From the IMG/VR virus record IMGVR_UViG_3300005827_000051, positions 1-32,903 of that record: DNA of 32,903 nt; one strand, given 5' to 3'. Shown one piece after another: positions 21,127 to 32,903 of the stretch. Origin of the DNA: a virus. The notes under the pieces were generated by a model, which made no database searches, had not been told where the DNA came from, and worked only from the letters and a program-made list of their open reading frames with translations. The first letter of the stretch is position 1, and every line of letters starts with the position of its first letter. The position numbers were made by a program, and so were the translations under genes.

Positions 21127-21444
21127 TTATTTACCTATCAGAAACTCTTCCTTGCTACGTCCATTAGCGATAAGCTCTTTCATCCATTTTGGCATTAGCC
21201 CGCGGCCAGACCATGTTAGCTGGTGGTTCTCTGGATGTCGGTACTTGGGCAATACCTGTTCGGCAGCTTTTTTAAATAGCTTTTCCAGGTTGATATCAAA
21301 CTCTGCAGCAAGAGCAATGATTCTTTTTCTAGCGTCTTTTCGTAGGGTTTTCCTCAATCCCTCAATTTCGTCCTCTATCTCATTTTTCTTCATGATAAGC
21401 TCAGCTAATTCCATCGGAAAAATATCGCTGTTAGTGGGTTGCAT
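21127..21444 (-). CDS. H-NS family DNA-binding protein
   Basis: Probable ATG 21444 (AAAGG 8 nt upstream); the listed GTG 21459 is an alternative. N-terminal coiled coil. The C-terminal KYRHPENHQLTWSGRGLMPKWMKELIANGRSKEEFLI carries the H-NS DNA-binding signature (TW(S/T)G(R/Q)GR.P.W ... (D/E)FLI). Confidence 0.8.
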   Translation of the reverse strand: MQPTNSDIFPMELAELIMKKNEIEDEIEGLRKTLRKDARKRIIALAAEFDINLEKLFKKAAEQVLPKYRHPENHQLTWSGRGLMPKWMKELIANGRSKEEFLIGK

Positions 21445-21470
21445 TAAGTTACCTTTCACAGGGTGATGGT

Positions 21471-21498
21471 ATTATAAAATTTGGTTACTCAAATCCAA
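21471..21498 (-). promoter_or_regulatory. Sigma70-like promoter in front of the H-NS-like gene
   Basis: The minus strand reads TTGGAT - 16 nt - TATAAT (-10 at 21476..21471, -35 at 21498..21493), about 25 nt upstream of ATG 21444. Confidence 0.45.
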
Positions 21499-21604
21499 GC
21501 CTGCTGGTTCTAGCGATAAAGTGACATCCTCTTTTAAGTGTTTGGCTATTGAGCCAGTAACGGCATTGTGGGCCATATGACTGCGCGTGACCGTAACAAA
21601 AACA

Positions 21605-21625
21605 CAGCCCCCTTCGTTGAGGCTG
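21605..21625 (-). terminator. Weak terminator-like hairpin between the DUF2829 and H-NS-like genes
   Basis: The minus strand reads cagcc-(11 nt)-ggctg followed by tgtttttgtt. An alternative 6-bp hairpin gttgag/ctcaac lies at 21616-21631. Confidence 0.3.
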
Positions 21626-21653
21626 CTCAACGCAATGGTGGTGTACTACATGA

Positions 21654-21968
21654 TTAGCAATAGGTTTCTAGCATTTTGGCGAAGTACCCCGACAGTTTAT
21701 CTTCTAAGCTTTCTTCGGCTTCTTTCTCTGACCTATTATCTTCATTGCCAGTTATTAGACTGGTTATAAGCCAATCGTCTGCCAGCAAATCTGTTTGCGA
21801 TGCCAGCCAAGGCACTAATTTCTTATCTGCCGTGTACATGCAGATATATGGCAATTGATCTTCAAGAAGCGGGGTGAGCAAAAAGATATACATATCCTTA
21901 CCATTCCATCCTTCGCGGGCCAGATGTCTCCCTTTTTTCAAAAATCCAAGTGCTTCACTGAAATTCAT
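21654..21968 (-). CDS. DUF2829 domain protein (Tad2-like candidate)
   Basis: MNFSEALGFLKKGRHLAREGWNGKDMYIFL...PYICMYTADKKLVPWLASQTDLLADDWLI matches the DUF2829 pattern as I recall it (M.F.EAL..LK.G....R.GWNGK.M.......PWL.SQ.D.LA.DW). It also has a ~35-aa acidic C-terminal extension. Confidence 0.75.
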   Translation of the reverse strand: MNFSEALGFLKKGRHLAREGWNGKDMYIFLLTPLLEDQLPYICMYTADKKLVPWLASQTDLLADDWLITSLITGNEDNRSEKEAEESLEDKLSGYFAKMLETYC

Positions 21969-21995
21969 TTTTCTCCCCTATTTTGTTAAAGTTCG

Positions 21996-23695: not shown

Positions 23696-24052
23696 TTAAT
23701 TGGCCTGTATATGTTTTATCGCCAAATTAAGAATGTCGGTGCCTGATAGGTCTGCGCCTGAAAAATCCACATTAGCCATTTTGCACCCATACAAGCGCGC
23801 TCCACGCAAATTTGCGCCACGGAAACAGGCTCCTCTTAAGTCAGATCCTCTTAAATCTGAGCCGCTTAAATCTGCTCCTGAGAAATCAGCTCCCACAAGA
23901 TTAGCCCAAATAATATATTGATTGCTTAAGTTGGCATTTGCTAAACTGACTCCTTTGTTTACTGTTTTCTCTACCGTTTTTACAAGAGAATTAAACTCTT
24001 GTTCATGTTTAAATATGTATTTCTTTGCGATGCTTTTGATGGAAATATTCAT
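23696..24052 (-). CDS. Pentapeptide-repeat protein
   Basis: 118 aa. About 15 consecutive A(D/N)LXX-type pentapeptides (ANLSN..ANLVGADFSGADLSGSDLRGSDLRGACFRGANLRGARLYGCKMANVDFSGADLSGTDI). Confidence 0.9.
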   Translation of the reverse strand: MNISIKSIAKKYIFKHEQEFNSLVKTVEKTVNKGVSLANANLSNQYIIWANLVGADFSGADLSGSDLRGSDLRGACFRGANLRGARLYGCKMANVDFSGADLSGTDILNLAIKHIQAN

Positions 24053-24294
24053 GCATCCTTCTCACGTCCTTTAAACCGATAAACCGCTGGATCGGTATTA
24101 GCCTTCAAAACCTCTTTCTCTATGTCAGTCGTTAAAACACCGATCTTGCTTGTGAGCTTATTCAGCTCATTGACCAGAAAAAGCACCTCGTCATTTGATG
24201 TTCTAATGTTGCTAATTAGCGTTTCTATTCTGTGAGCCGCATACAGCGACATCCCATGAGATTCACGCAGCAATTCTTTTAATGTTTCGCACAT
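24049..24294 (-). CDS. Hypothetical early protein (81 aa)
   Basis: ATG 24294 lies 1 nt after the upstream stop, so the listed longer start would overlap the upstream gene. Helical composition. Confidence 0.5.
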   Translation of the reverse strand: MCETLKELLRESHGMSLYAAHRIETLISNIRTSNDEVLFLVNELNKLTSKIGVLTTDIEKEVLKANTDPAVYRFKGREKDA

Positions 24295-24295
24295 A

Positions 24296-24523
24296 TTAAT
24301 CGTTTCCACATAGAGAGTTATTTGCCCGACTGTCGATAAGATCATCAAATGTTCTTTTTAACGCATAGCGCACGTGCTCTTTGTGGTCATTACGATGGCA
24401 ATGATTAAGAATTAACATCGCTAACCCATAAGCGTTACCAATAGCTAGTCCACCGTCTTCATACATGTTCAGTCGTGCGGCGATTTCTTTTAAAGAAACA
24501 TGCGGTTTATTCTCAGCGTTCAT
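24296..24523 (-). CDS. Hypothetical early protein (75 aa)
   Basis: Internal ATG 24523 preceded by GGAG (GGAGACTGTAATG). MNAENKPHVSLKEIAARLN... might contain an HTH. Confidence 0.5.
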   Translation of the reverse strand: MNAENKPHVSLKEIAARLNMYEDGGLAIGNAYGLAMLILNHCHRNDHKEHVRYALKRTFDDLIDSRANNSLCGND

Positions 24524-24899
24524 TACAGTCTCCATAGTTGTCACCTGCGGCCCAATCATTGTGTTCGTCAGTTAGCTGATCAATGAGTTGTTCGTAAATC
24601 CAGTCATGGTCATTTTTCGTTAACCCAAGCACCATTTCTTCATTGGCATACTGGTACTCCATTACGTCGATAGAGCCATTAGCCTTGTTGTCATCAAACC
24701 CGACGTAGATCGATACGCCTCTTTTGTCGAAAAATATCTCGCGCCATTCCAGAGGTTTTTGGCGCCATACACTGTCATCGTTAGCAGGCTTAGCCGAGAA
24801 AGACTGAATAATTGCGTCCGCTATCCGCTCGGCTCTTGCTTGCTCATCAGCTTTGGTTAGTCTCTCAAAAACCGCAGGGTGTTGAATGGCTTGGGTCAT
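24513..24899 (-). CDS. Acidic hypothetical early protein (128 aa)
   Basis: AAGGAG lies upstream of ATG 24899. By my count it has roughly twice as many Asp/Glu as Lys/Arg, concentrated in the C-terminal half. Confidence 0.6.
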   Translation of the reverse strand: MTQAIQHPAVFERLTKADEQARAERIADAIIQSFSAKPANDDSVWRQKPLEWREIFFDKRGVSIYVGFDDNKANGSIDVMEYQYANEEMVLGLTKNDHDWIYEQLIDQLTDEHNDWAAGDNYGDCNER

Positions 24900-25106: not shown

Positions 25107-25135
25107 AATATAAGGCATAGACTGATTTATATCAA
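25107..25135 (-). promoter_or_regulatory. PL-like sigma70 promoter for the leftward early operon
   Basis: The minus strand reads TTGATA - 17 nt - TATATT (-35 at 25135..25130, -10 at 25112..25107). An ~85% AT tract lies upstream (25125-25200). Confidence 0.5.
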
Positions 25136-25456
25136 TAAAAAATTTATTTATTTTTATATTTTTAGCTGTTTTATAGTTATATTATTGATTATATTGCCTT
25201 ATTACCCTGTCTCAAAAACGCACTCCCGCCACATCGTCTGCCATGTGGCAAAACCGCGAATACTTAAGAAAAAATGATTGAGAGAGCGAAGAACATTATT
25301 TGTTTAGAGGAATATAGCTATGGCAAATGTCGCAAACTGGCGGCACGCTGAAATTTTCGGTGAATGCGGATTGATAGGTGCGGGCTATTTACTGGCATGT
25401 ATGAAAGAGTTATGATGATATGCGCTATCTTTCATAATTAGAAAACTTTGCTATAT

Positions 25457-31734: not shown

Positions 31735-32903
31735 TTGGAACCCAAGGGGTTATCAAATATCCGCTTGGCAAGCATTAGAACGCGGCATTAAAAGAGCTTT
31801 GTTAATTTGGCATCGTCGGGCAGGCAAGGATGATTTATGCCTTCACTGGACGGCAACGCAGGCCTTGAAGCGAGTCGGTACCTATTGGCACATGTTGCCC
31901 AAGGCGTCGCAAGGCCGGAAAGCCGTGTGGAATGCGGTGAACCCGGCGACGGGAAAGCGTCGAATTGACGAAGCATTTCCTATTGCGCTACGCAAAAGAA
32001 CTCTCGAAAACGAGATGTTTATTGAATTCATCAATGGTAGCACGTGGCAGCTGGTAGGAAGCGATAGTTTTGATCGTCTGGTTGGCAGTCCACCAATAGG
32101 CATTACGGCCTCAGAGTGGGCGTTAGCAGACCCGAAAGCATGGGCGTATTTACGGCCTATCCTTCGTGAGAACAAAGGATGGGCTGTTTTCATTACCACG
32201 CCTCGTGGACGCAATCACTGCTACAGGATGTTTGAAGAGGCGCAGAAAGATGACGATTGGTTCGTACAAAAGCTCACGGCATTTGATACCGGCACGCTGT
32301 CTCACGTCGAGCTGGAAAAAGAGAGGCAGGAGTACATCAGAGAATATGGCACAGATGATGGCGATTCGTTATTCCGTCAGGAATATCTCTGCGATTTTGA
32401 TGCAGCGTTAGTGGGAACGTATTTCTCGAAACAAATTAGCGATGCCACAAGCCAGAAAAGAATCACGGAGGTTCCTTATGACCCAAGGATTCTTGTTAAT
32501 ACTAGCTGGGATTTAGGCGTTTCCGATTCAACCGCTATTTGGTTTTGGCAAGTTTCAGGGCAGCAAATTAGAATAATTGATTATCTTGAAAACTCTGGTC
32601 AAACATTATCTTGGTATGCTGAACAACTCCGCGGCAAATCATATAGCTATGGCGATCATTATCTTCCGCATGATGTCGAAATATTAGATATGAGTGCAGT
32701 TGGAGGAATGAGTCGCAAAGAAACATTAAACTCTCTTGGAGTAAGAGTTAGCGTTGTCCCACGAGTTAAAGATAAATCAGAAGCGATAAATGCAGTTCGC
32801 TCCATTTTACCTCGCTGCGTCTTTGACAAGGTTAAATGTGAGAGAGGTATTGATGCCATTGCGCAATATCGTCGCAAATGGGATGATGAGCGAAAAGTTT
32901 ATC
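31712..32903 (+). CDS. terL: Terminase large subunit, N-terminal and central part. The ORF is open at the window end and continues at 121..254.
   Basis: ATG 31712. Product: MQTILPNNWNPRGYQISAWQALERGIKRALLIWHRRAGKDD (Walker A-like)...VFITTPRGRNH...FRQEYLCDF...WDLGVSDSTAIWFWQ (nuclease domain). There is no stop before the end of the window. Confidence 0.9.
   Translation, partial: MQTILPNNWNPRGYQISAWQALERGIKRALLIWHRRAGKDDLCLHWTATQALKRVGTYWHMLPKASQGRKAVWNAVNPATGKRRIDEAFPIALRKRTLENEMFIEFINGSTWQLVGSDSFDRLVGSPPIGITASEWALADPKAWAYLRPILRENKGWAVFITTPRGRNHCYRMFEEAQKDDDWFVQKLTAFDTGTLSHVELEKERQEYIREYGTDDGDSLFRQEYLCDFDAALVGTYFSKQISDATSQKRITEVPYDPRILVNTSWDLGVSDSTAIWFWQVSGQQIRIIDYLENSGQTLSWYAEQLRGKSYSYGDHYLPHDVEILDMSAVGGMSRKETLNSLGVRVSVVPRVKDKSEAINAVRSILPRCVFDKVKCERGIDAIAQYRRKWDDERKVY
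32784..32903. repeat. Second copy of the terminal overlap (identical to 1..120)
   Basis: See the feature at 1..120. Confidence 0.97.

Follow-up and report, generated by a model that had tools for sequence, protein, structure and literature searches.

Genomic context of the Tad2-like gene

The window analysed here, 32,903 bp in length, is a complete IMG/VR virus record (100% complete by CheckV), and its GC content over the whole record is 42.3%. An identical 120-bp repeat is found at the two ends of the record (1-120 and 32784-32903), consistent with a genome that is terminally redundant or was assembled as a circle. The gene under study and the regulatory elements around it are listed below.

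21654..21968, minus strand: Tad2-like gene, 104 codons plus a TAA stop (ORF list, PF11195 match and PDB sequence matches)
21973..21978 (21978-21973), minus strand: Shine-Dalgarno-like GGGGAG, 4 nt before the ATG of the Tad2-like gene (direct sequence reading)
25107..25215, minus strand: two sigma-70-like promoters, TTGAGA-16-TATAAT and TTGATA-17-TATATT (consensus scan only)
21604..21626 (21626-21604), minus strand: terminator-like hairpin, then GTTTTTGTT, 28 nt past the stop of the Tad2-like gene (pattern scan)

The ORF at 21654-21968 on the minus strand starts with ATG and encodes a product of 104 aa, hereafter the window protein. The ATG start is supported by the MNFSEAL-type N-terminus, which the window protein has in common with its relatives. 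The gene is the final member of a tightly packed leftward (early) gene string, in which three small ORFs are followed by the genes for a pentapeptide-repeat protein, an 82-aa ORF, Erf, a YqaJ-type exonuclease and, last, the Tad2-like protein. Both sigma-70-like promoters (~25.1-25.2 kb) stand at the head of this string, whose packing is taken from the ORF map. Downstream of the Tad2-like gene lie the hairpin, a TTGGAT-16-TATAAT element and then the H-NS-like, SSB and Xis-like genes; the TTGGAT-16-TATAAT element precedes the H-NS-like gene, and the integrase gene converges on this group of three. The first-pass annotation had placed the gene between the recombination genes and a terminator-like/promoter pair, and this position is borne out, with the YqaJ-type exonuclease and Erf upstream and the hairpin followed by TTGGAT-16-TATAAT downstream. 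The hairpin itself is a pattern match only: the region holds 4 terminator-like sites against 4.1 expected in shuffles, and the fold at 21604-21626 is no better than that of shuffled sequence (z -0.42). It is thus a weak candidate for the end of the early leftward transcript.

Several neighbours deserve brief description. The three small early ORFs of 128, 87 and 99 aa that head the leftward operon (24049-24899, minus strand) had no counterpart in PHROG at an E-value limit of 0.001. The pentapeptide-repeat protein (23696-24052, minus strand) matches PF00805 with an E value of 1e-35, and the product of the H-NS-like gene (21127-21459, minus strand) matches the H-NS C-terminal domain PF00816 with an E value of 8e-18; together with the Tad2-like gene, these two may form a loose host-manipulation or counter-defence group around the recombination module. 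Between the Tad2-like and H-NS-like genes, a 52-aa ORF with a TTG start (21472-21630, minus strand) extends over the terminator-like hairpin; neither Pfam nor PHROG yielded a match to it, and it is unlikely to be a gene. When 12 neighbour proteins were compared by tblastn with 102-103 related loci, none was found within 4 kb at E up to 1e-5. The lack of shared neighbours at the related loci implies that the Tad2-like gene moves as a single cassette, as is expected of counter-defence genes.

Sequence and predicted structure of the Tad2 core

Tad2 proteins are small, phage-encoded sponges for the alarm signal of Thoeris, a bacterial defence system. Residues 1-68 of the window protein match PF11195, the Tad2-like family (formerly DUF2829), with an E value of 4.6e-24 and 85.2 bits (85.4 in a repeat run); the curated cut-off of this profile is 25 bits, and profile positions 1-72 of 73 are covered. 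The region concerned is the following.

21765..21968, minus strand: Tad2 core domain, residues 1-68 (Pfam match, AlphaFold2 model and VIA-align)

The first-pass annotation had recognised DUF2829 from two motifs and had advised an HMM search. Both motifs are present, GWNGK at residues 20-24 and PWLASQTDLLADDW at residues 53-66, and the profile score of 85.2 against the cut-off of 25 bits confirms the assignment. The sole PDB sequence matches are Tad2 proteins, namely SptTad2, HgmTad2/AcrIIA7, SPO1 Tad2 and ModTad2, with E values from 5e-15 to 2e-10. In the AlphaFold2 model, built on 99 sequences, residues 1-70 have block-mean pLDDT values of 86-97, and the modelled core consists of a helix (residues 3-11) followed by five strands, giving a small antiparallel beta-sheet as in Tad2. 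The best 24 Foldseek matches of the model are all Tad2 chains. Superposition by VIA-align on all solved Tad2 proteins (8v3e, 8smf, 8wjd and 8kbj) gave Z scores of 12.0-12.5 and rmsd values of 1.6-2.0 Å, with 70 residues aligned; an unrelated chain came next with Z 5.9. The family is large: a phmmer search of 1.84 billion representatives returned 4737 of them at an E-value limit of 0.001. The closest relatives, found among 5.8 billion clusters, are 66-68% identical over the core. Both the sequence matches and the model indicate a genuine, ordinary Tad2-family gene.

Comparison with characterised Tad2 proteins

The founding Thoeris anti-defence 2 sponge, SPO1 Tad2 (Gp34.65; 8SME, 8SMF, 8SMG and 8WJE), is a small stand-alone phage protein like the window protein. 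The two superpose with a Z score of 12.2 and an rmsd of 2.0 Å over 70 residues, are 47-49% identical over the aligned positions, and share the gcADPR contacts W, N, T, D, W, S, T and D. They differ in the segment between beta2 and beta3, where SPO1 Tad2 has a 24-residue insertion with helix alpha2 and the window protein has ~8 residues, and at the C-terminus, where only the window protein bears a tail. In addition, SPO1 is a lytic Bacillus phage, whereas the window phage is temperate and probably infects a proteobacterium. HgmTad2 (AcrIIA7; 8KBI-8KBM) and SptTad2 (8WJD) scored highest in the PDB sequence search (E 5e-15 and 1e-14, respectively) and share the pocket residues W21, N22, G23, M, V, W, L, S, T and D with the window protein; however, their 41-residue insertion domain, which binds cGG or cGAMP, is absent from the window protein, as are its contacts. 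The best structural match is ModTad2/MoTad2 from a Myroides odoratus prophage (8V3E and 9EIB; Z 12.5, rmsd 1.7 Å). This prophage-encoded Tad2 has WTPSVSD where the window protein has WLASQTD; it binds His-ADPR (the type II signal) and not the type I signal, and it takes up cUMP in a second pocket.

Another instructive counterpart is Tad2_71, an IMG/VR protein tested by Hadary et al. 2025 (bioRxiv 10.1101/2025.08.24.671296). It shares 46% identity with the window protein and likewise has GWNGK and PWLASQTD; in both, the beta2-beta3 loop is short and there is no insertion domain. Tad2_71 departs from the window protein in its loop, which is of the PDEHSKM type and longer by 2 residues, and in having a 9-residue insert ahead of the PW motif and an 8-residue N-terminal extension; it lacks the acidic tail. 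Tad2_71 binds 3'cADPR and N7-cADPR and blocks Thoeris types I, II and IV (bioRxiv 10.1101/2025.08.24.671296).

The putative gcADPR pocket

The ligand pocket was mapped by projecting PDB sequence alignments onto the contacts published for SPO1 Tad2 and HgmTad2. In SPO1 Tad2, W25, N26, W73 and D79 hold 1''-3' gcADPR, the adenine lies near T78, I63 and T65, and waters are contacted via D67, H71 and S76 (Yirmiya et al., bioRxiv 10.1101/2023.05.01.538930). In HgmTad2, the gcADPR contacts are W21, N22, G23, M76, A78, V84, W87, L88, S90, T92 and D93, and gcADPR binding is markedly reduced by the substitutions W21A/N22A and S90A/T92A/D93A (Li et al., bioRxiv 10.1101/2023.11.15.567273). The corresponding putative pocket residues of the window protein are W21, N22, G23, M44, T46, D48, V52, W54, L55, S57, T59 and D60. 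Ten of the 11 HgmTad2 contacts are identical (A78 is replaced by T46), as are 8 of the 10 SPO1 Tad2 contacts (H71 is replaced by V52 and I63 by M44), so that the comparison with characterised Tad2 proteins proposed in the first-pass annotation comes out in favour of a conserved pocket. The SPO1 residues W25, N26, I63, T65, D67, W73, S76, T78 and D79 correspond, in this order, to W21, N22, M44, T46, D48, W54, S57, T59 and D60. The replacement of H71, which makes a water-mediated contact, by V52 counts against the sponge interpretation. Across the window protein and 98 relatives, the pocket residues are invariant or nearly so, and R18, W21, N22, P53, W54, S57, T59, D60 and W66 are invariant in all 99 aligned sequences.

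This conservation also bears on whether the DUF2829 domain might serve some purpose other than as a sponge, either as an anti-CRISPR or in connection with the adjacent recombination genes. AcrIIA7, a DUF2829 protein, was first named as an anti-CRISPR, and the Tad2-like gene lies directly after exo and erf. On the other hand, AcrIIA7 is the sponge HgmTad2 and had no anti-Cas9 activity on re-test (bioRxiv 10.1101/2023.11.15.567273); 0 of 102 related loci have a homologue of any neighbour within 4 kb, which argues against a functional linkage to the recombination genes; and the ligand-pocket residues are conserved among the 99 sequences. A non-sponge role is therefore scarcely credible.

Loss of the insertion and the second pocket

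21849..21878, minus strand: vestigial insertion loop between beta2 and beta3, approximately residues 31-40 (split alignments to PDB Tad2 sequences)

The insertion that follows beta2 comprises residues 36-59 in SPO1 Tad2 (24 residues) and residues 32-72 in HgmTad2 (41 residues) (bioRxiv 10.1101/2023.11.15.567273), and in the window protein it is cut down to ~8 residues. In the split alignment, window residues 30 to 39 correspond to SptTad2 residues 33 to 68. The distance from W21 to W54 is 33 residues in the window protein; most close relatives have 35, and values as high as 64 occur among the rest. The gcADPR sponges SPO1 Tad2 and HgmTad2 are homotetramers of two V-shaped dimers with two inter-protomer pockets. 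In SPO1 Tad2, this dimer is formed by helix alpha2, part of the insertion; alpha2 is missing from the window protein, and a tetramer is therefore not assured. The gcADPR pocket of SPO1 Tad2, however, sits between non-dimeric protomers joined along alpha1 and not in the insertion, so that it could persist where the insertion is lost.

The second pocket is a different matter. It is built by the insertion between beta2 and beta5, lies at the intra-dimer interface, and is occupied by cGG or cGAMP in HgmTad2 and SptTad2 and by cUMP in MoTad2. The first-pass annotation had offered, besides an anti-Thoeris role, a broader signal sponge acting on CBASS or Pycsar signals, and family precedent exists for a dual sponge that would also take CBASS cyclic dinucleotides or Pycsar cUMP/cCMP, since HgmTad2, SptTad2 and SaTad2 bind cGG or cGAMP and MoTad2 and Tad2_70 block Pycsar. 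Nevertheless, the second pocket needs a long insertion where the window protein has ~8 residues, and by alignment the HgmTad2 cyclic dinucleotide contacts R31, S47, F70 and N85 have no counterpart in the window protein. Even SPO1 Tad2, whose insertion is of intermediate length, gave no detectable band shift with other cyclic nucleotides (bioRxiv 10.1101/2023.11.15.567273). With the insertion domain essentially absent, the broader reading finds no support, and a dual sponge that also takes CBASS or Pycsar signals is very improbable.

It was also considered whether a C-terminal extension compensates for a short loop. At least 15 residues after W66 are present in 7 of 26 short-loop relatives and in 44 of 225 other relatives (Fisher p 0.44); there is no link between the two features, and compensation was rejected.

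The acidic C-terminal tail

21657..21764, minus strand: C-terminal tail, residues 69-104 (sequence and AlphaFold2 model)

The extra acidic tail described in the first-pass annotation is real: residues 69-104 (36 residues) carry a net charge of -5 and include 7 Glu. In the model, a disordered linker (residues 73-78) leads into a predicted helix (residues 78-103), with pLDDT values of 49-70. Searches for relatives of the tail found none among 5.8 billion clusters; with phmmer, no further protein among 1.84 billion representatives scored below E 1e-21, and such extensions as could be aligned were heterogeneous. Tail peptide patterns had zero matches in IMG/VR and GTDB genomes, and the ESM Atlas search with the tail returned generic single-helix matches only. 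The hydrophobic moment of the tail helix, 0.34, was reached by 5.7% of shuffles, and its amphipathicity is not significant. Judged by sequence comparison, the acidic C-terminal helix is an addition that only this phage has.

Having some C-terminal extension is nevertheless common in the family. Approximately 20% of 251 relatives have at least 15 residues after W66, and the sequences of these extensions are mutually unrelated. Relatives P0013, P0129, P0188, P0145, P0219 and others bear C-terminal extensions of 15 to 179 residues, and P0145 and P0188 have a longer conserved C-terminal domain in common. A net negative charge was found in 37 of 48 C-terminal but also in 59 of 86 N-terminal extensions, and the relatives had been selected for their resemblance to a query that is itself acidic. 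For both reasons, we do not regard acidic tails as characteristic of the family.

A tandem TAATAA occurs at 21757-21752 on the minus strand, one base out of frame in codons 71-73 of the Tad2-like gene; it may be the footprint of a tail-creating frameshift, or it may be a chance occurrence in AT-rich DNA. The corresponding explanation of the tail is that it is an accident, in which a 1-nt frameshift, real or introduced in assembly, carried the reading frame past the ancestral stop into former 3' untranslated sequence, leaving the 70-residue core as the working protein. In frame, the TAATAA would end the protein at W66+4, and many of the closest relatives stop 3-5 residues past W66. It is also in keeping with an accident that the tail has no homologue in any database searched, that its pLDDT is only 49-70, and that an open stretch of ~34 codons at 42% GC would arise by chance in ~12% of cases by our estimate. 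Against this, the in-frame codon-usage score of the tail, 9.2, is in the typical range for coding frames of this phage: it stands at the 32nd percentile of the real coding windows and exceeds 99.4% of open out-of-frame windows, although 27% of open intergenic windows match it. Moreover, off-frame stops are frequent in AT-rich DNA, and ~20% of relatives bear genuine C-terminal extensions, mostly acidic. On balance, an accidental origin of the tail is doubtful, if conceivable.

A further proposal is that the acidic helix is a functional module that replaces alpha2 for oligomerisation, caps the ligand pocket or binds a second host target, which would constitute a new Tad2 architecture; this is rather improbable. 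The tail is probably dispensable for binding, and it could interfere with assembly of the window protein.

Predicted ligand specificity and mechanism

The specificity of the window protein may be approached through Table S2 of Hadary et al. 2025 (bioRxiv 10.1101/2025.08.24.671296). Six Tad2 proteins in this table have GWNGK together with W-x-x-SQ(T/A)D, namely SPO1 Tad2, HgmTad2, Tad2_70, Tad2_71, Tad2_82 and Tad2_83, and all six blocked type I Thoeris. The members with S-x-(G/S)-D, MoTad2, Tad2_68 and Tad2_76, blocked type II and have no validated type I inhibition, and several homologues that inhibited nothing tested in the screen are without the canonical motifs (bioRxiv 10.1101/2025.08.24.671296). 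The relationship between motif and specificity is our own reading of Table S2 and is not a claim of Hadary et al. Under this rule, a type I (3'cADPR) sponge is predicted. From its motifs, and by analogy with the six type I blockers, the window protein is a predicted 3'cADPR (1''-3' gcADPR) sponge; by analogy with Tad2_71, it is possibly active on types II and IV too.

This analogy leads to the question of a Thoeris sponge of other or wider specificity, which would take His-ADPR (type II) and/or N7-cADPR (type IV), with or instead of 3'cADPR. The window protein is 46% identical to Tad2_71, which blocks types I, II and IV and shares with it GWNGK, PWLASQTD and the short beta2-beta3 loop, and the short-looped Tad2_79 blocks types I and IV. 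However, the 9-residue insert before the PW motif of Tad2_71 is absent from the window protein, the type II-specific members have S-x-(G/S)-D and not SQTD, and the determinant of N7-cADPR binding has no published form that can be mapped onto the window protein. Such a shift or widening of specificity is a possibility to be held in mind, although we regard it as the less likely course.

The preferred explanation of the locus is a sponge for the type I Thoeris signal. The family, the fold, the contact residues, the lack of the second-pocket insertion and the position in the early operon are shown by the present analysis. Since the gcADPR contacts are conserved, the gene is best read as encoding a candidate anti-Thoeris sponge of a temperate phage; the HMM match, the sequence matches to solved Tad2 proteins and the predicted fold lend further support to this suggestion, already made in the first-pass annotation. 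Mechanistically, a minimal Tad2-family sponge would be expressed early from the leftward operon of the temperate phage. The protein would form oligomers, most likely via helix alpha1, and the inter-subunit pockets would bind and sequester 3'cADPR, the type I Thoeris signal. Consequently, the ThsA effector would stay inactive and the phage would replicate. What we infer in this scheme is how the protein oligomerises, which ligand it binds and how it affects defence. Taken as a whole, a minimal Tad2 sponge for the type I Thoeris signal, made early, is the probable explanation, and we hold it with good confidence.

Host and biological implications

No match to phages was found by megablast with 6 kb of the record. 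At the protein level, the portal is 35-40% identical to portals of freshwater, marine and proteobacterial podoviruses, the SSB shares 50% identity with SSBs encoded on Pseudomonas plasmids, and the H-NS-like protein is 32% identical to those of Acinetobacter and Ralstonia phages. These similarities point loosely to aquatic or proteobacterial phages, and the host probably belongs to Pseudomonadota.

The Tad2-like gene adds one more predicted anti-Thoeris sponge, from an uncultured temperate podovirus-like phage, and the presence of the predicted sponge suggests that the host lineage employs TIR/Thoeris signalling. Apart from its 36-residue acidic tail, the gene is ordinary. With a core of ~70 residues and almost no insertion, its product represents a natural near-minimal Tad2, and it would thus be well suited to testing whether a gcADPR pocket can form from the core by itself.
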